Shown: positions 55,254 to 63,809, counted from the first letter of the stretch. The stretch: DNA of 63,809 nucleotides from Granulosicoccaceae bacterium (GCA_033852095.1 JAWSVD010000004.1:1-63809); one strand, 5' to 3'. Translations and numbers: made by a program. The notes: generated by a model not told the origin, from the sequence alone.

Positions 55254-55590
55254 GGCGAAACAATCACGCCGCGGGCCACGTTGTTCGCGCCAGGCTTTGC
55301 GCCATTTCCGCGCTACCCCTGCTCTGGCATTGGCGGCTCAGGGGCATCGCCATGGCCTGTCATGAAGCGGGGCGCTAAGCGGCCTGAAGGGCCTCTATTT
55401 CTATCAGTGTGAGTGAAATCAGCGCTCTTTTGCTGGCGCACAGGCCACGTTTGGTGGCCGCTTAGCAGTCCGTCCGAGGCGGGATTGCGGGGCGCCGAAA
55501 GCCGATATGCCCGCAGTGCACAATTTCAGCTGCATAAGAGTGTGTTTAACGGGTAAAATGCTCGTTTTCCACCGGCCAGAACCCCAGACC

Positions 55591-58500
55591 ATGCTGATTC
55601 TCCCCGGCGCGACCGCGCACTCCGCCTTCCGTATCGATGCCCTGCTCAAGCAATGCCACAGCTTGGGCCAGTCGGTCACAGCGATACGCTCGCGCTTTGT
55701 CTACTTTATTCAGCCCGAGGGTGAGCTCAGCAGCGAGCAAAGCAACCGCATCGCCGAGTTACTGGACGCAGAGTCTCAGCCCTACACAGCCAACGAAGGC
55801 GCACTGTGGGTATTGCCACGACTCGGCACCCAGTCGCCCTGGTCGTCAAAAGCGTCTGATATCTTCCGCAATTGCGGCCTGCCCGTGTCGCGGGTCGAGC
55901 GCGGCATCGAATTCGTGCTCGAAGGCGATTGGCAGGCGGCCGATGTAGCGCCCGCGCTGCACGACCGCATGACGGAATCCCTGCTCACCGATCCCGCTCC
56001 TTTTGCCCATCTCTTTGACGAGCACAGCCCCAAGGCGCTCTCTCGCATAGCGCTCTCCACCGGGGGCAGAGCCGCGCTGGAAAGCGCCAATGTGCGACTC
56101 GGCTTGGCATTGTCCGAGGACGAGATCGACTACCTGGTCGAGAGCTACGGTGCGCTGCCGCGCAGCCAAGACCCAAGCGACGCCGAGCTGATGATGTTCG
56201 CCCAGGCCAACTCCGAGCACTGCCGCCACAAGATATTTGGCGCCGATTGGGTGATCGACGGCGAAACGCAAGAGAAGGGCTTGTTTGCGATGATCCGCAA
56301 CACCCACGCGCTCAACCCCGGCGGCGTGCTCAGCGCCTACAGTGACAATGCCGCCGTGATCACGGGACATGACGCCAAGCGCCTGCTCGCTGACCCGGCA
56401 ACGGGCACTTACCAGCGCTTCGAAGAACCCGCGCACATCCAGATCAAAGTCGAGACCCACAACCACCCGACGGCGATTGCACCCTTTGCAGGGGCTGCCA
56501 CCGGCAGTGGCGGCGAGATTCGCGACGAGGGTGCCACGGGCACCGGCTCCAAGCCCAAGGTGGGCCTGTGCGGCTTTACTGTCTCTAACCTGCGCATCGA
56601 CAGCTTGACTCAGCCCTGGGAAGAGCGCGACCACGGCAAGCCCGAGCGCATCGCCTCGGCGCAGCAGATCATGCTCGAAGGCCCCATAGGCGCGGCCGCT
56701 TTCAACAACGAATTTGGCCGTCCCAACTTGGCGGGCTACTTCCGCAGTTTTGAGGACGACGTGCGCTTTAATGATCGCTCCGAGCTGCGCGGCTTCCACA
56801 AACCCATCATGATCGCCGGCGGCATGGGCAATGTACGCCCCATGCAAGTGCTGAAAAACGGCTTTGGCCCAGGCGTCCCCTTGGTAGTGCTCGGCGGCCC
56901 GGCCATGTTGATTGGTCTGGGCGGCGGTGCTGCCTCTAGCGTCGCCAGCGGGCAGGGCGATGCCGAGTTGGATTTCGCCTCCGTGCAGCGCGGCAACCCC
57001 GAGATGGAGCGCCGCTGCCAAGAGGTTATAGACCGCTGCATCGCCTACGGTGAGGCCAATCCCGTGCTGTCCGCGCACGACGTGGGCGCGGGCGGCTTGT
57101 CCAATGCCTTCCCCGAGCTGGTGCACGACGCCGATTTGGGCGCGCGTTTTGAGCTGCGCAATATCCCCAGCGCGGAGGCTGGCATGACGCCGCTGGAGAT
57201 CTGGTCCTGCGAAGCGCAAGAGCGCTACGTGTTCGCCATCGACCCCGCGCGACTGGATGCTTTCATCGCCCTGTGTGAGCGCGAGCGCTGCCCCTACGCC
57301 GTGGTCGGAGAATCCACCGACGACGGCCAGCTGCACGTGGGCGATCAGATCTTGGGCGAGAGCCCTGTCGACATCCCCATGGACCTGCTGCTGGGCAAGG
57401 TGCCCAAGATGACCCGCACAGTAGAGCGCGCCAGCTACGGCGGCGCCGCGCTGGACACCTCATCCATAGCGCTCAACGAAGCCATCGAGCGCGTATTGCA
57501 ACTGCCGTCCGTCGCCAGCAAAAACTTCCTCATCACTATTGGTGATCGCAGCATCACCGGCATGGTCGCGCGTGATCAAATGGTCGGCCCCTGGCAGATC
57601 CCCGTGGCCGATGCCGCGGTGACTTTCAACGACTTTGACTGCAAAGACGGCGAAGCCATGGCCATGGGCGAGCGCAGCCCCATCGCGCTGGTCGATCCCG
57701 CGGCCTCTGCACGCATGGCCATTGGCGAGGCACTCACCAATATCTGTAGCGCACCCGTGGGCGACATCCGCGGCATCAGCCTCAGCGCCAACTGGATGGC
57801 TGCTTGCGGACACCCTGGCGAGGACGCCGCACTGTTCGACGCGGTATACGCCGTGGGCATGGAGCTGTGCCCCGCGCTGGGTGTCAACATCCCCGTGGGC
57901 AAAGATTCCCTGTCGATGAAAACCCACTGGCAGCAAAACGGTGATCAGCGCGTCATGGCTTCACCGATGTCGCTGGTCGCCACTGCTTTCGCCGCCACCC
58001 GTGATTCAGCTCGCACCCTGACACCGCAACTGCAACCGCGCCTCGACGCACCGCTGCTGTTGGTCGACTTGGGTGCCGGTAAAAACCGCACCGGCGGTTC
58101 CGCACTGGCGCAGGTCTACAACCAAATCGGCGACGTGGCACCAGACCTAGACGACGCCGCCGCCTTTGTGGCCTTTTTCACGACAGTGCAAACATTAATA
58201 GACGACGGTGCGCTGCTGGCCTACCACGACCGCAGTGACGGCGGCCTGCTGGCCGCCGCGGCCGAGATGGCATTCGCGGGCAACTGCGGGCTCGACCTAG
58301 ATGTAGAAGCGCTGGGCGATGACGCCATCAACGCGCTCTTCAATGAAGAGCTAGGTGCGCTGATGCAAGTATCAGTCGAACACCTAGAGCAGGTGCAAAC
58401 TGCATTTGAAGAGGCGGGGCTCGGGCATTGCCTGCACACACTGGGCGCTCCCAACCACAGCCGTGAACTGCGCATTAGCAGTGGCGACAAAGCACTCTAC

Positions 58501-59436
58501 AACGCTGGCATCGGCAAATTGCTCGGCCTGTGGTGGTCAACCTCACACGCCATGCAGCGCCTGCGCGACAACCCAGACTGCGCCGACCAAGAGCTGCACA
58601 CGGTTCTCGACTGCGAAAACCCAGGCTTGCAAACACGCCTCAGCTTCGATGCCAATGACGACGTAACTGCACCCTACATCAACAGCGGCGCTCGACCCGC
58701 GGTTGCCATCTTGCGCGAGCAGGGCGTCAACGGCCAGATCGAAATGGCCGCTGCCTTCGACCGTGCCGGTTTCGAAACCCTCGACGTGCACATGTCTGAC
58801 TTGTTCGCCGGGCGTGTCAGCCTTGATCAAGTCAAAGGCCTCGTGGCCTGTGGTGGCTTCAGCTACGGCGACGTGCTCGGAGCCGGTGCTGGCTGGGCGC
58901 GAAGTGCCCTCTACAACGACGCACTGCGGGATCAGTTCCAAACATTCTTTGAGCGCGAAGACAGCTTCGGTCTCGGCGTCTGTAACGGCTGCCAGATGAT
59001 GTCGCACCTCGCGCCACTCATCCCCGGTGCCGATCACTGGCCCACCTTCCACCGCAATGCTTCAGAGCAGTTTGAAGGCCGCGCCAGTCTGGTCGAGATA
59101 CAAGAGAGCAAGTCCATCCTGTTGCAAGGCATGGCGGGCAGCGTCATTCCTGTCGCCGTGGCGCACGGGGAAGGGCGCGTGGTTGGAGCGACAGGCAAGA
59201 GCTGCCTGCGCTACGTGGACAACAGCCTCAATGCCACTGAGACTTATCCGGCTAACCCCAATGGCTCACCTGAAGGGGCTACGGGTTATACCAATGGAGA
59301 TGGGCGGTTTACGATTATGATGCCGCACCCTGAGCGGGTGTTTAGGACTGCGCAGATGAGTTGGGCGCCGGAGGGGTGGGGTGAGGACAGTCCGTGGATG
59401 CGGATGTTTCGCAATGCTCGGGTTTGGGTTGGGTAG
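55591..59436 (+). CDS. purL: Phosphoribosylformylglycinamidine synthase (large, fused type)
   Basis: [67 protein letters not shown]. Start ATG 55591 inferred from a TAAAAT -10 at 55554. Confidence 0.98.
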
Positions 59437-59487
59437 GTTGATTACTCGCCTGTTCTGTGGCGTAGTAGTCTGACTAGCGACAAAGGA

Positions 59488-59763
59488 ATGCTTATGCCTT
59501 CAATATCCATGTTTTATGGGCTGATTGTTTATATGTATTTTATGGACAACCGGCAGCACAAACTCCCGCATATTCACGTCAAGTACCAAGGCGATGAAGT
59601 GGTTGTACAGATTCCCGACGGCACCATTCTGGAAGGCAATATTCCTAACCCCAAAATGAAGCTACTTCAGGCTTGGGTAGAGCTGCATCAAGATGAGCTG
59701 ATGGCCGATTGGGATCTCGCGGTTGCTGGCGAGCAGCCTTACAAAATTGAGCCTTTGAGGTAG
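59488..59763 (+). CDS. DUF4160 (DhiT-like) toxin-antitoxin component
   Basis: MPSISMFYG..VYMY..D...H..PHIHV.Y; AWVELHQDELMADW; IEPLR. Confidence 0.88.
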   Translation: MLMPSISMFYGLIVYMYFMDNRQHKLPHIHVKYQGDEVVVQIPDGTILEGNIPNPKMKLLQAWVELHQDELMADWDLAVAGEQPYKIEPLR

Positions 59764-59767
59764 TGAT

Positions 59768-60028
59768 ATGAATCCGCGTGTGAAGAGTGTTGAGGCTTTG
59801 TCAGATTTTAAGCTACAAGTTCAGTTCAGCAATGATGAGCTGGGTGTTTATGATTGCTCGCATTTACTGGATTTTGGCGTCTTTAAAGAGCTTCAGGAAG
59901 TGAGCTATTTTCAGAGAGTGGCTGCTGTCGACGGTACTGTGTGCTGGCCTAATGAGCAGGATATTTGCCCGGATACTGTTTATTTGGATTCAGTGAAGAT
60001 CGCTCGTGGTTCGCTTAAGGTTGGGTAG
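59768..60028 (+). CDS. DUF2442 (DhiA-like) partner protein
   Basis: VKSVEAL.DFKL.V.FSN, GVF.EL....YF, GTV.WPNEQDICPDTVY; directly after DUF4160. Confidence 0.88.
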   Translation: MNPRVKSVEALSDFKLQVQFSNDELGVYDCSHLLDFGVFKELQEVSYFQRVAAVDGTVCWPNEQDICPDTVYLDSVKIARGSLKVG

Positions 60029-60030
60029 TC

Positions 60031-60265
60031 GTGGCTGCTGTTGAAGTTACCCGGATTTCTGCTGACGGTGTTTAATTGCTAACCGGTGGGCGTGAGCTGT
60101 TTATGGCTTATGATGACTTTCCTTGGTTTAAGAATGCGCCAGTTGGGCAGGTAATGAATGTTGAGGAGCCTTCGGCTGGGTGTTTTTATTGGCCTGAGCT
60201 GGGTGTTGATTTGAGCGTGGAGGTCCATTGAGAGTCCTGAGGATTATCCATTAAGGGCAATGTGA
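60031..60265 (+). pseudogene. Second DUF2442 gene, inactivated
   Basis: Manual translation VAAVEVTRISADGV*LLTGGRELFMAYDDFPWFKNAPVGQVMNVEEPSAGCFYWPELGVDLSVE / SIESPEDYPLRAM*; in-frame TAA at 60073 and a +1 frameshift near 60223. Confidence 0.85.
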
Positions 60266-60385
60266 GGACTGGCTTTGAGTTTGCCCGTTATAGTATTGCA
60301 GGTTTGTCAGAGGAAGTAGCTCGAAGCTAAGTTCGGCAGCGAAGAATTAGGTGTTTGTTGAAAGCCGTGACATTGTTCGTTTGTT

Positions 60386-60397
60386 GGACCTGACCCC
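60386..60397 (+). repeat. GGACCTGACCCC motif resembling ends associated with Y1/RAYT-like transposases
   Basis: Single copy, read directly; the family link rests on my pattern recall, not on a search. Confidence 0.4.
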
Positions 60398-60446
60398 GGG
60401 TTTCCCTTTCTGGCATACTGAACGCAGCAAACAGTAGGTAGGGTAT

Positions 60447-60671
60447 ATGGAACATCAAAGAATCACTTTAGATCCAGATAAGCGTGGCGGAAAGCCCTGC
60501 ATTCGCAACTTGCGCATTACCGTTTACGACGTGCTTGCTCAGTTTGCCGCAGGTGTCAGCCAGTCCGAAATACTCGAAGACTTCCCAGAGCTGGAAGAGC
60601 AAGACATTAGCGCTTGCTTGTCTTTTGCTGCTGACCGCGAGCACCGCGTCACAGGCATTCAGGCCGTATGA
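60447..60671 (+). CDS. DUF433 antitoxin (VapB45-like)
   Basis: RITLDP..RGGKPCIRNLRITVYDVL..G.S..EILEDFPELE.QDI.ACL.FAA. Confidence 0.92.
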   Translation: MEHQRITLDPDKRGGKPCIRNLRITVYDVLAQFAAGVSQSEILEDFPELEEQDISACLSFAADREHRVTGIQAV

Positions 60672-61001
60672 AGCTGTTACTCGACGAGAACTTATCTCGT
60701 CGAGTAGTGCATCTGTTGGTCACCGATTTCCCCGGCACTACTCAAATTGCGCTGCAGGGCATGGAGCAGGCGTCCGACAGCGAAATTTGGCAATTCGCCC
60801 GCGACAACGACTTCGTTATTGTGACAAAAGATGCCGATTTTTATGAATTGAGTGCTTTTGCACGGCGCGCCCCCTAAAGTTATTTGGCTGAAGACAGGCA
60901 ATGTAGCTAAGGCTGAGATCGTCAGTGTTTTGCTGGGGAATCGAGAGGCTATTGAAGAGGCTCTAGCGTCGATCGTGGTGAATTGTGTTGAGCTGTATTG
61001 A
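60668..61001 (+). pseudogene. DUF5615 PIN-like toxin (VapC45-like), frameshifted
   Basis: MKLLLDENLS, DSEIW.FA, IVTKDADF; the family C-terminus LLHGAPPKVIWLKTGN...CVELY* continues in the +1 frame after ~60854. Confidence 0.88.
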
Positions 61002-61245
61002 TGGCATTGACTACCAGTGAGCCATGGCCACTCGCGCAGAACGTCAAATGTGATGATGAGTCGCTGATTGTTGAGGTGCTGGATGGGCGGGTTATTTCTG
61101 TGCCTTTGATTTGGTTTCCATTGTTGGTTGAGGCAATGCTGAGCAGCGCGGGAACTGGGTGCTTCTTGGGGATGGTGAGGGGGTGCATTGGCCGGAGCTG
61201 GATGAGGACTTGAGTGTTGCTGGGTTGTTGGCTGGGGTTCGGTGA
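61001..61245 (+). pseudogene. Third DUF2442 gene, frameshifted
   Basis: L.DGR.ISVPL.WFP.L; after a shift near 61135 it continues EQRGNWVLLGDGEGVHWPELDEDLSVAGLLAG. Confidence 0.88.
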
Positions 61246-61347
61246 AAATAGAGTTTGTTAAAGCTTTACGATTAGTTCTGACCTTGCTACAAGTTTTTAG
61301 TGTGAATTTTATATTTGGCTGGAATAATATTCAGCGAGGATTTTTTA

Positions 61348-63141
61348 GTGGATGAGGTATTGGTTCAAGTAACAGCGAGTGTGATAAATCACCAGATCGA
61401 TGGTGTTACTTCCAGGCTTTCAGGAGAAATCAAGTCTTTTTGGATGCAGCACTTAGCATCTTTTAGAAAATATATTAATAGTGCTAACAAAAGGTACGAA
61501 GTGACGAAAACGCTACTGTATAAAGATCAAGCAGTGCCGCTTCGTGATCTATATGTAGGCACTGGCTTAAGGCGAGGGCGTAAAGAAGTAACAGAGATTG
61601 AGTTTGTTGAACAGCTTTTACAGGGAAACCGGTGTTTGGTAAGTGCAACAGCAGGCGCAGGGAAATCTTTTTTTTCAAAATGGTTGTTTTTAAAAATTCT
61701 TTCAACAAAAAATTCTATTCCGTTAATTATAGAACTTCGAAATTTGAATGGTACTGGCCTCGGTTTTATTGATTATCTTATAAGTGACTTAAAGAGCAAC
61801 TTCGAAATATCGATGACATCAAGTGAACTTATAAAGCTTATCGAGAGCGGAAAATTCACATTAATACTCGATGGATATGATGAATTAACAGCTGAAAGAA
61901 TCAATGCAGTGAACTCTGAGCTGCTTTCACTTGAAGTGCCTTTCGCTGAGTCCTCTATCGTAATAACGACTAGACCTGGTGGTGAAAATATAGAGTATTT
62001 ATCTGGTTTCACTACGTATCAAGTGCTGCCACTTAAGCTTTCTCAAGCAATATCTTTAGTTAAAAAGCTTAAATATGATGAGAAAGTAAAAAAATCGTTT
62101 CTTCTTAACTTAGAAAATGAGCTTTTCAATAAACACAAAGATTTCCTGTCAAATCCACTACTACTTACCATTATGTTAATGACGTATGGTGATTTGGCTG
62201 AAATTCCTTCCAAAATGCACATTTTCTATGAGCAGGCGTTCGATACATTATTTTATCGCCACGATTCGTCGAAAGGTATGTATCGTCGAGAGCTTAAGTG
62301 TCAGCTCGCCATCGATGATTTTAAAGGTATATTGTCTTGTGTTTCAGCATCTAGTTACATCCGAGGGCAAGTTACACTAACAAATACTGACTTGGTTGCG
62401 TTTATAAGAAAAGCGAAACAAACAGCTAATGTTAATAAGCTAAATCCAAGAAAATACATCGATGATTTGGTGCAGTCGGTCTGTTTGTTGTTAGAGGATG
62501 GTACAAAGTACACATATAACCATAGAAGTTTCCAAGAGTATTTCGCTGCACTTTTCTTGATTCAGATTCCAACCGAAAGAAAAACGGAGGTTTATAAGCG
62601 ATTCCTTAGCAAAGAGGGAACAGATAATGCGCTTTCACTTGCTTTTGAAATGAACCAATCAATGGTCGAGAGAGAATTTGTGAAACCAATGCTGGAATCA
62701 CTTTTGGAAGTTTCAACTACACCTGAGGCATTAATCTGCGCTTGTATGTCTGGTATAAATTTAGAACGTCGAGTGAAAAGTCGAATGGTTGATGGCAAGC
62801 GCGTCAAACAACTCGGTATGCCAACATACCGTGTGTTAGATGAAACGGATTATTGGAAGTTTCAAATATATGTAGAACACATGTATCAAAAAGAAGCTAA
62901 GAAGCATATAAAATTCGGGGTGTTAACAAAAAAATCATTTGTTGAAGAGTTTGGCAAACTTGAATATCGCGAAACAATTGACTTCGAAAATGAATTATGT
63001 CCAATATCCAGTTCAAAATTGGAAAGACTCGGTATAACGGAGGTTAGCAAAAATCGTCTCGAGTTTCTTCACTGGTTAATTAAAGACATTAATGTTAGAG
63101 AGCAGCGCACTGGTGACTCAAACCTTGAAACTTGGTTGTAG
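61348..63141 (+). CDS. NACHT-family (STAND) NTPase, probable anti-phage bNACHT-type protein
   Basis: Walker A ATAGAGKS, Walker B LILDGYDE, ITTRP, NPLLLT, HRSFQEYFAA. Markedly AT-rich. GTG 61348 follows GAGGA. Confidence 0.88.
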   Translation: MDEVLVQVTASVINHQIDGVTSRLSGEIKSFWMQHLASFRKYINSANKRYEVTKTLLYKDQAVPLRDLYVGTGLRRGRKEVTEIEFVEQLLQGNRCLVSATAGAGKSFFSKWLFLKILSTKNSIPLIIELRNLNGTGLGFIDYLISDLKSNFEISMTSSELIKLIESGKFTLILDGYDELTAERINAVNSELLSLEVPFAESSIVITTRPGGENIEYLSGFTTYQVLPLKLSQAISLVKKLKYDEKVKKSFLLNLENELFNKHKDFLSNPLLLTIMLMTYGDLAEIPSKMHIFYEQAFDTLFYRHDSSKGMYRRELKCQLAIDDFKGILSCVSASSYIRGQVTLTNTDLVAFIRKAKQTANVNKLNPRKYIDDLVQSVCLLLEDGTKYTYNHRSFQEYFAALFLIQIPTERKTEVYKRFLSKEGTDNALSLAFEMNQSMVEREFVKPMLESLLEVSTTPEALICACMSGINLERRVKSRMVDGKRVKQLGMPTYRVLDETDYWKFQIYVEHMYQKEAKKHIKFGVLTKKSFVEEFGKLEYRETIDFENELCPISSSKLERLGITEVSKNRLEFLHWLIKDINVREQRTGDSNLETWL

Positions 63142-63144
63142 CAT

Positions 63145-63166
63145 AGGAAGTTAAAAGGAAGTTAAA
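63145..63166. repeat. 11-bp tandem duplication AGGAAGTTAAA x2 at the NACHT / element-end junction
   Basis: Copies at 63145-63155 and 63156-63166. Confidence 0.85.
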
Positions 63167-63694
63167 AGAGACAGGCACTGGAAAGAAAGCGTTCTGATGC
63201 GAATGATTGCTTTTTCTCAGTTTGGTTTTGGCTTGTCCGGTGGTTTTTCAACGGATCACGGTGATCTGTATCTGAACTGAAGCGATGGCGTCGGGGTGAG
63301 GGCGTGCGGGGTTGTTGGGTGTTGATGGCGCGGTGTTTTGTTTGTCGCGGGCTTGTTTGCTTTAGCCAGAGCCGGCTTTTAGTCTAGGCCGGCGATGTTG
63401 ATGTTCGCTGCTGGCCCAGAGGCCGAAGGCTGTTTCGAAGTTGAGCGCGATGTCTTCCCATGTGTCGGGATCGATGTTGAGGCGCTTGAGAATCGGTGGC
63501 AGGGTGTCGTCTATCTTGCCGCGTTTGTCTTGGCGGACGATGCGACCAGTGGCTTCGAGGAGTTTAAACAAATTAAAAGAGACAGGCACTGGAAAGAAAA
63601 GCTTTTCACATGTTTGATGGCTTGTTCTTGATTTGGTTTTGGCTTCTTTTGCGGGTTTTCAGAACTATTAAGAGAGACAGGCACTGGAAAGAAA
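63167..63694. repeat. Three direct copies of the 22-bp motif AGAGACAGGCACTGGAAAGAAA (63167-63188, 63578-63599, 63673-63694)
   Basis: Exact copies read directly; copies 1 and 2 share further diverged similarity for about 60 bp (TTTGGTTTTGGCTT). Confidence 0.92.
63362..63570 (-). mobile_element. C-terminal remnant of a Y1/HUH (REP-associated, IS200-superfamily-like) transposase
   Basis: LLEATGRIVRQDKRGKIDDTLPPILKRLNIDPDTW..IALNFE resembles the L.LVDWTGR.IR.DKRG.I....PPIL.RL.I...W tail I recall for the ~320-aa gammaproteobacterial Y1 transposases. The catalytic N-terminus is absent. Confidence 0.7.
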
Positions 63695-63809
63695 GCGGTT
63701 ACGAGCGTTGTCAAGATAGTTGACCGTTTTATCTATGCGACTTCTTTAAGTTTCTCGTCCGGTTTATCCGTTTTAGTCTCAGGGTTCAACCCAGGGCAAC
63801 CGCATCAAA

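Follow-up and report, generated by a model that had tools for sequence, protein, structure and literature searches.

Immediately downstream of purL in a Granulosicoccaceae bacterium lies an islet of small toxin-antitoxin modules and one NACHT NTPase gene, and the far side of the NACHT gene adjoins the end of a truncated transposon belonging to a multi-copy TnpA-Y1 family. The islet closes the stretch analysed here (the window, 63,809 nt), which is the entire contig C123 of assembly G000 (642 contigs, 6.3 Mb, GC 0.57); G000 is the genome under study, C-numbers denote its contigs, and X1 to X4 denote sequencing runs consulted as Logan contigs. Throughout G000 the 3' end of this transposon, here called the right end (RE), is strongly associated with small blocks of defence genes. 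We propose that the islet is a mosaic, in which the NACHT gene came attached to the RE side of a transposon of TnpA-Y1 subclass 2.3, beside older toxin-antitoxin modules exchanged by recombination, a reading that we judge to be evenly poised between right and wrong.

The transposon end contains a short motif, GTGCCTGTCTCT (motif 2), at 63178-63167 on the minus strand. The first-pass annotation of this stretch, which described two Y1/HUH transposase end motifs at gene junctions of the islet, had placed it correctly and had overlooked that it belongs to a 30-nt repeat occurring three times in the same orientation, at 63162, 63573 and 63668; at the first two positions the similarity continues over 92 nt. 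The first copy lies within RE1 (63159..63361, minus strand; repeat families D1 and D2), comprising the 3' non-coding region and the end of a subclass 2.3 element. This region is 73% identical to its counterpart on C506 and aligns with the 3' regions of nine other copies, all of which end in a G.GTGTC-type core about 200 nt past the stop codon; GGTGGGTGTCAC, GGTGAGTGTCT, GATGCGTGTCTATGAT and CAGTGCCTGTCTCT are examples of the core after full-length genes. The conservation of these ~200-nt 3' regions behind full-length genes, ending in a related core, identifies motif 2 as the RE of a multi-copy element of TnpA-Y1 subclass 2.3. Motif 2 is the outer end, and its element runs rightward, away from the NACHT gene.

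Adjoining RE1 on the same strand, tblastn detected the C-terminal remnant of the transposase gene (63362..63572), cut on its 5' side by a second RE fragment, RE2. The corresponding open reading frame (ORF; 63589-63362, minus strand) has its first codons within the RE2 repeat and no Pfam match, and it matches the C-terminal part of Y1 proteins of ~330 amino acids (aa) at 22 more places on 18 other contigs, with up to 84% identity (the copy on C527). Full-length paralogues are 325-328 aa long, of which the remnant represents the last ~70 residues. The paralogues carry the Y motif YVDLNP and a HuH motif that reads NHTH or NHHH, not NHYH, both located outside the part preserved in the window. Pfam and NCBIfam profiles capture these proteins poorly: Pfam Y1_Tnp gave E 0.027 only, and NCBIfam REP_Tyr_transpos gave 41 bits against a cut-off of 80.

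Subclass 2.3, as described in the main text of the survey by Quentin, Siguier, Chandler and Fichant (2018; PMC6006769), consists of multi-copy proteins of ~325 aa with core insertions, an extended C-terminal tail, YVDLNP and the HuH motif NHYH, found in Chromatiales and Alteromonadales. The paralogues in G000 share the length, the YVDLNP motif, the gammaproteobacterial host and the presence of many diverged copies, and their HuH motif keeps only the form NHxH; 17 N-terminal and 17 C-terminal gene ends were counted in the genome, where the subclass is characterized by more than five copies. The same main text gives no REP-like or IS-like ends for subclass 2.3, although the survey's supplementary figures, which treat copy numbers and flanks, may be relevant here, whereas the family in G000 has a conserved 3' region of ~200 nt, a G.GTGTC-type core, head-to-tail arrays of ends, and adjoining defence genes. 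Assignment to IS200/IS605 was rejected, as the protein is twice the size of the ~150-aa transposases of that group, whose elements have subterminal hairpins at both ends, and has a Y...NP in place of a Y...Q motif.

Two further fragments of the end follow the transposase remnant. RE2 (63570..63661, minus strand; repeat D1) is the 3' end of a similar element, 76% identical to RE1 over 92 nt, and Logan contigs show joints at its left edge, 63570. RE3 (63668..63697, minus strand; repeat D2, 97%) starts 95 nt past the start of RE2 and has Logan joints at 63667 and 63670. Head-to-tail RE fragments of differing lengths are found not only in the window, but also on C582, C35, C583 and C549. Since such stumps are arranged head to tail, and since joints occur in the population at 63570 and 63670, we conclude that the RE is a real element end that has been used repeatedly. 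Hairpins at the RE were seen by eye in the subfamilies on C35, C299 and C549. On C549 (L106 5990-6150) the RE hairpin, GGACACTCA...TGAGTGTCT, is present in three tandem copies at the element end, overlapping the stop codon of a gene for a Lit-like peptidase.

An RE profile was used to survey the genome, yielding 38 matches at E<1, of which 34 had a measurable flank and were manually grouped into 27 sites. In 11 of the 27 sites the adjoining 1.5 kb has a GC content below 0.45, compared with 1.2% of 11,171 genome windows of equal size; some of the weak matches may be false, which would only have diluted the signal. The low-GC blocks beyond the RE span 1.3-2.5 kb, with a sharp transition to core DNA behind them, and their content is recognizable in several cases. 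The block on C35 encodes an AAA_15 ATPase of the OLD/AriA/GajA type (PADLOC AriA 4.5e-35, Old 2.1e-33) together with a DpnI-like protein, that on C549 encodes the Lit-like peptidase (3e-21), and that on C620 encodes ThsB (2e-59), a membrane protein and a DUF3892 protein, with another AAA_15 gene past two solo REs; a TIR-like protein is encoded on C189 and a DUF6232 protein on C257. The distance from the RE to the stop codon of the neighbouring gene is 0-50 nt: RE1 of the truncated element lies 17 nt from the NACHT stop codon, the figure on C257 is 7 nt, and on C35 and C549 the RE overlaps the stop codon. In seven of eight loci the neighbouring gene and the transposase gene converge, C582 being the exception. 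The enrichment beside defence genes that the first-pass annotation had anticipated was thus borne out for the motif 2 end, which in G000 is strongly associated with small blocks of defence genes. The two solo REs on C620 (34262-34330; L107 6261-6330) belong to different subfamilies and lie back to back between the ThsB-type block and the AAA_15 gene, whose start codon is ~20 nt from the RE.

In the window, the gene that adjoins the RE is an intact, stand-alone NACHT NTPase gene (61315..63141, plus strand; Pfam NACHT E 3.8e-08) with a GC content of ~0.36, present in a single copy in G000. Its product is complete: 967 relatives were found at E<=1e-10, the best with 67% identity, and the C-terminal residues are common to the relatives. 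The protein is probably anti-phage; PADLOC gave no match, and the similarity to EruA (E 5.8e-05 only) is far below the cut-off. Where the NACHT gene meets RE1, Tandem Repeats Finder detected an 11-nt tandem duplication, AGGAAGTTAAA x 2.2 (63145..63168, 100% matches). A partial duplication resembling it is also present at the RE joint on C506. A contig from run X3 equals the window from 63103 on, thereby taking in RE1 and 38 nt at the 3' end of the NACHT gene, and carries unrelated GC-rich sequence before that point. An RE-like word within the 3' end of the NACHT gene (63092-63108) was discarded as a chance occurrence, as it codes for a conserved REQRTG motif.

The site at which the islet lies is variable, as the first-pass annotation had also held. 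purL (55507..59436, plus strand; identified as an ORF) is a core gene, and the last 299 aa of its product are 90% identical to PurL of the closest relative, G004. The GC content falls from ~0.61-0.66 within purL to 0.35-0.53 downstream, and DNA homology to G004 ends within ~10 nt of the purL stop codon. In Logan contigs 59438 is a loose end and 59439 a joint, such that the variable region begins 2-3 nt past the stop codon. After purL, G004 carries a different DUF4160 gene and a DUF2442 gene, followed by unrelated genes. The DUF2442 gene nearest to purL in G004 is a homologue of the window's third DUF2442 gene (tblastn 81% and 52% identity in two frames), and this is the only gene of the islet that G004 shares with the window, over ~220 nt from ~61027 to the stop codon with a 1-nt gap in the alignment. 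G001 has a 4.5-kb low-GC insert after purL, encoding two large proteins without known family, and G005 has no insert; the purL neighbours of G005 and G001 are not syntenic in G000, and a DUF2478-like flank query matched G002 only. In strains co-occurring in runs X2 and X3, a contig links the purL end at 59439 to 60407 through ~620 nt of other sequence, so that 59440-60406 is replaced. A further strain variant skips 60700-61187, a 486-nt deletion with TTTT at the joint, and in run X1 different sequence was also found past 59438. Uncovered parts of the window in runs X2-X4 were not counted as absence. The purL 3' end is therefore a hotspot with strain-variable content.

A second islet, with the same layout, follows valS, on C376 (51100-52165) joined to C582 (reverse) through a 22-nt contig overlap. 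It begins with valS, DUF433, DUF5615 and DUF2442 genes, a nucleotidyltransferase-like gene (named by eye and spanning the contig joint) and a small ORF, continues with an intact DUF2442 gene, a degenerate terminal repeat (TIR; E 0.25) of the elements known as TIRtrons, a TIR_2 protein gene and a gene for a 1165-aa VWA protein, and ends with five head-to-tail RE fragments, two genes, and an RE with a full-length transposase gene. The purL and valS loci have toxin-antitoxin modules in common, arranged in a different order. In G004, valS is directly followed by genes for a HepT-like toxin and a 1083-aa protein. RE matches in G004 were found at exactly two places among 16 loci (~170 kb), both on the minus strand: a solo RE 42 nt past the final plus-strand ORF in the purL islet, sharing 19 identical bases with the C521 RE, and another solo RE where the 1083-aa gene downstream of valS ends, overlapping its stop codon. 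The far edges of the purL and valS islets thus carry an RE in four of four loci examined in two species. Variable content between conserved flanks, after both purL and valS and in two species, is what is seen at core-gene-flanked defence and accessory hotspots without mobility genes; the difference here is the subclass 2.3 end at the distal edge.

These observations can be arranged as a mosaic of four layers rather than a single machine. The first consists of the type II toxin-antitoxin modules beside the purL stop codon (DUF4160/DUF2442, a solo DUF2442 and DUF433/DUF5615/DUF2442), probably swapped among strains by recombination; the second, of a solo TIRtron end between two of these modules; the third, of the intact low-GC NACHT gene beside the RE of the truncated subclass 2.3 element, which points towards it; and the fourth, of two further RE fragments and another repeat. 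The absence of Y1 remnants between the toxin-antitoxin modules, the sharing of modules in a different order with valS and of one gene with G004, and the replacement of whole segments among strains fit recombination at a hotspot in that part of the islet. The NACHT gene, on the other hand, falls within the genome-wide pattern of defence blocks on the RE side, and is for this reason taken to have been carried by the element. Anatomy, family assignments, site variability and the link of the RE to defence genes are demonstrated; both the carriage and its route we infer. The subclass 2.3 element would move by single-strand HUH chemistry, landing just downstream of gene ends, and would at times take along DNA from beyond its RE in read-through or one-ended events like those of ISCR/IS91 and Helitrons. 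The NACHT gene may have arrived with an element of this type, attached to its RE side, with later copies landing in or beside the first and leaving RE stumps.

Several results weigh against carriage by the element. The toxin-antitoxin part has no Y1 remnants between its modules, and neither an RE, nor a TIR, nor a Y1 gene was found near relatives of the NACHT gene in 10 other loci. Among transposase-linked ends, the count that favours carriage, with low GC (<0.45) on 5 of 14 RE sides and 0 of 10 opposite (left-end, LE) sides, is borderline (Fisher p = 0.053, or p = 0.024 for 6 of 14 and 0 of 10 when the threshold is raised to 0.47), and the loci are non-independent. No second RE or other common motif was found by eye or by profile at the far ends of the cargo blocks, and therefore no complete cargo-bearing unit is defined; nor does any cargo block occur twice in the genome, as was shown for that of the window. 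Comparison with G004 at the C257 and C549 loci yielded no definable empty site, because synteny is broken there (the neighbouring genes, gap and EamA, are located elsewhere in G000). The transposase genes have a GC content of 0.52-0.56 against 0.36-0.42 for the cargo, so that the two need not share a history. Finally, many copies in G000 lack a low-GC neighbour; the subclass 2.3 family was present in 48 of 400 sampled Gammaproteobacteria genomes, and among 17 copies from other Gammaproteobacteria with DNA on the RE side, a low-GC neighbour was seen in only ~4-5; two of those neighbours are rhs toxin/immunity tips, and several of the copies are plain elements beside core genes. In the two rhs cases (L089, G349:C12; L098, G242:C11) the RE is adjacent to an rhs-type toxin gene at its low-GC tip and to small genes downstream.

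The most serious alternative reverses the order of events: the defence and toxin-antitoxin genes came first, and subclass 2.3 elements, which prefer or are tolerated in AT-rich DNA or hairpins past gene ends, landed beside them and delivered nothing. The islet would then be an ordinary hotspot with transposon debris. In keeping with this, there are cargo-less copies whose RE lies against ordinary DNA or another copy (C373, C417, C583), copies insert into one another, and in other genomes the neighbour of the RE is a core gene for an aminotransferase (L084) or one of the rhs toxin/immunity tips of L089 and L098; the missing far-end motif and the third DUF2442 gene, which G004 has at the same site and which makes part of the islet old, fit as well. 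Insertion into existing islets should, however, place low-GC DNA on both sides of the element, yet it is confined to the RE side in the comparison above, and 11 of the 27 RE sites abut DNA of a composition that makes up 1.2% of the genome. In addition, the RE sits at the very edge of each block, no more than 50 nt from a stop codon. On this balance we regard landing without delivery as rather unlikely, though it must be taken seriously, and retain carriage of the NACHT gene by the element as the preferred account.

If that account were extended to the family as a whole, subclass 2.3 elements would be widespread and hitherto unrecognised gene-capturing transposons whose RE serves as a fixed joint for defence and toxin modules, dropped after the stop codons of conserved genes, purL and valS among them, and which together with TIRtron ends assemble and reshuffle small islets of immune genes by single-strand chemistry; we put this forward tentatively, as a possibility with clearly less than an even chance of being correct. 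ISCR/IS91 elements and Helitrons are rolling-circle transposons of the HUH type, which take up genes flanking one of their ends. The subclass 2.3 loci resemble them in layout only, having a fixed end beside variable passengers, tandem ends and no defined second end, whereas ISCR/IS91 elements and Helitrons encode larger Rep-type HUH transposases rather than TnpA-Y1 proteins, and a rolling-circle or read-through mode for subclass 2.3 would be an analogy. These loci bear on how small integrase-less defence islets between core genes originate. Were defence genes indeed acquired and released at the RE, the family would constitute a new vehicle for immune genes and a bacterial counterpart of gene capture by ISCR elements and Helitrons. 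The main text of the survey that defined subclass 2.3 (PMC6006769) ascribes no ends, cargo or role to it, and a search of the literature, supplements not included, found no paper linking the subclass with ends or cargo.

We also considered that the islet is a stranded array of integron cassettes, with attC sites and no integrase, or else forms the margin of a larger integrated element continuing past the contig end. DUF4160/DUF2442 pairs occur in integron cassettes, and the islet resembles a cassette array in its small co-oriented genes, many of them toxin-antitoxin pairs, in the repeat that follows some stop codons, and in replacement at the strain level. G000 contains two integron integrases above the TIGR02249 cut-off, on C362 (4-948) and C394, and C394 carries cassettes with attC. 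None of the integrases lies in the window. A custom attC scan, calibrated on C394 (where it recovered 3 of 3 sites seen by eye), returned no candidate between islet genes, the only candidates being within the NACHT gene or the RE region; several genes are separated by gaps of 2-4 nt or overlap, and therefore leave no room for an attC site. The repeat in the islet lacks attC structure; it is the end of a transposon and runs in the opposite orientation. No tRNA and no Rfam match was found in 59000-63809. The first-pass annotation had already seen neither an integrase nor an attC site here, which the profile search and the scan confirm. The contig ends in a repeat (63698..63809, no strand assigned), the end of another multi-copy repeat that is 94-99% identical to C587, C43, C418 and C247, with many Logan loose ends at 63702 and 63791; the first-pass annotation had overlooked this repeat too, and an element that may lie beyond it would agree with the second form of this explanation. 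Overall we find a stranded array or larger element improbable. On C394 (1-3948) at least three cassettes with attC lie on the opposite strand; the array has a fragment of an IS91-like gene at its far end.

The other motif of the islet, GGACCTGACCCC (motif 1), lies at 60386-60397 on the plus strand, where it had been placed before, and is the reverse complement of GGGGTCAGGTCC. It is contained in a repeat, GGGGTCAGGTCCAACAA... (60369..60397, minus strand; nhmmer E 3.5e-07 in a small locus set), that is present in 19 copies at E<0.1 with an nhmmer profile and in 12 copies at <=1 mismatch, including inverted dimers (C43, C587) besides singles. A loose regular expression tried earlier for these copies returned mostly noise and was replaced by the profile. 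On C363/C364 the repeat, starting GGGGTCAG..., stands at the head of a unit of two genes, the second being a Y1 transposase gene (Y1_Tnp), and on C591 a weaker variant, GGGAGTCAG, lies just upstream of a related Y1 gene whose product has a Pfam Y1_Tnp match above the cut-off (E 1.7e-12), the HuH motif NHYH and the Y motif YVVLNP. TIRtron terminal repeats share GGGGWSAS according to Di Nocera et al. (2013; PMC3733652), and the transposase genes of TIRtrons, TIRYT genes, correspond to subclass 2.1 of Quentin et al. (PMC6006769). The repeat start GGGGTCAG fits that consensus, the repeat opens a Y1_Tnp unit, and singles and inverted dimers occur in both; a GGGGWSAS repeat beside a Y1 gene was found on C363/C364 and, as the weaker variant, on C591, with the left-hand repeat only, as the contigs end. 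By these similarities motif 1 is identified as the solo terminal repeat of a TIRtron. The window holds this one solo end, without a transposase gene and with its outer side towards the DUF433 gene. Occurrence counts are of less help: the 12-mers of the motifs are found 2 and 8 times in the 6.3-Mb genome, and for the 17-nt TIR pattern the window yields a single exact match, and three at <=3 mismatches against 1.32 expected, which is not significant alone. It is the family evidence, not chance counts in the window, that carries the identification of the motifs.

Both motifs are thus ends of Y1/HUH elements, as the first-pass annotation had stated, but they belong to two unrelated families, a TIRtron and a subclass 2.3 element, and therefore cannot be the two ends of one cassette; the idea that they face inward around the segment from the DUF433 gene to the NACHT gene as a single unit falls with this. 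Nor do they mark the cassette junctions in general, since a motif is present at two of the six internal junctions between gene modules and the other four have none. The model built on them, in which cassettes are added time and again at purL by a RAYT-like HUH nuclease working in trans, with both motifs as recombination sites, forming an integron-like array, draws on the co-oriented genes and the variable site, on the right edge of the segment replaced among strains (60406), which is 9 nt from the outer TIR end (60397), on the order TIR (+), cargo, RE (-), which recurs on C591 and in degenerate form after valS, and on the solo RE motifs between gene blocks on C511 and C620, the latter separating two defence blocks. 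With two families served by different transposases, four motif-free junctions, modules that overlap or leave gaps of 2-4 nt, no conserved site past the purL stop codon between G000 and G004, and replacement between conserved flanks being what ordinary homologous recombination would produce, site-specific delivery of this kind is very improbable.

The remaining islet genes agree with the list that had been drawn up from the sequence, including the Y1-transposase tail, as verified by Pfam and tblastn, and all of the protein genes lie on the plus strand. The DUF4160 gene (59488-59763, plus strand; Pfam E 9e-26) encodes a putative DhiT-like toxin that scores 98.5 bits against NCBIfam toxin_DhiT (cut-off 100), and the first DUF2442 gene (59768-60028, plus strand; Pfam E 2e-11) encodes its putative DhiA-like partner, with a weak match to NCBIfam DhiA (E 0.0023, 18.4 bits, cut-off 200). 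The second DUF2442 gene (60031..60231, plus strand) is broken, having a GTG start at 60031, an in-frame TAA at 60073-60075 (the frame was read by eye) and a Pfam match at 60076-60231 (E 4.7e-10) that covers profile positions 16-64 only; its intact paralogue in the valS locus has 80% DNA identity. The antitoxin-like DUF433 gene (60447..60671, plus strand; Pfam E 2.3e-23) is followed by a PIN-like DUF5615 gene (60668..61001, plus strand) with a frameshift near 60853, which splits its Pfam match into two pieces in different frames (60668-60877, E 4.9e-24, and 60852-61001, E 7.4e-06). The DUF433-DUF5615 pair after valS is a paralogue of this pair, with 75% DNA identity to the DUF433 gene. The third DUF2442 gene (61001..61245, plus strand) has a frameshift near 61134 and a Pfam match to its N-terminal half only (60998-61213, E 1.7e-04), bringing the broken genes of the islet to three, a state that had escaped the first-pass annotation. 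The toxin-antitoxin genes are separated by gaps of 2-4 nt or overlap, with no repeat in between.

Both frameshifts are real in the source population of the assembly, because Logan contigs of run X1 are identical to the window across them. A contig from run X3 has one base fewer at 60853 and an extra T after 61134, each of which restores the frame by frame arithmetic, and the frameshifts accordingly appear to have inactivated two toxin-antitoxin genes of this strain only recently, and not to be assembly errors. C591 (1-3338) runs from a TIR end through a low-GC ORF, a minus-strand RE, another TIR and a TIRYT gene to a second low-GC ORF, which looks GNAT-like, and then the apparent start of a group II intron; the names of the last two were assigned by eye only.

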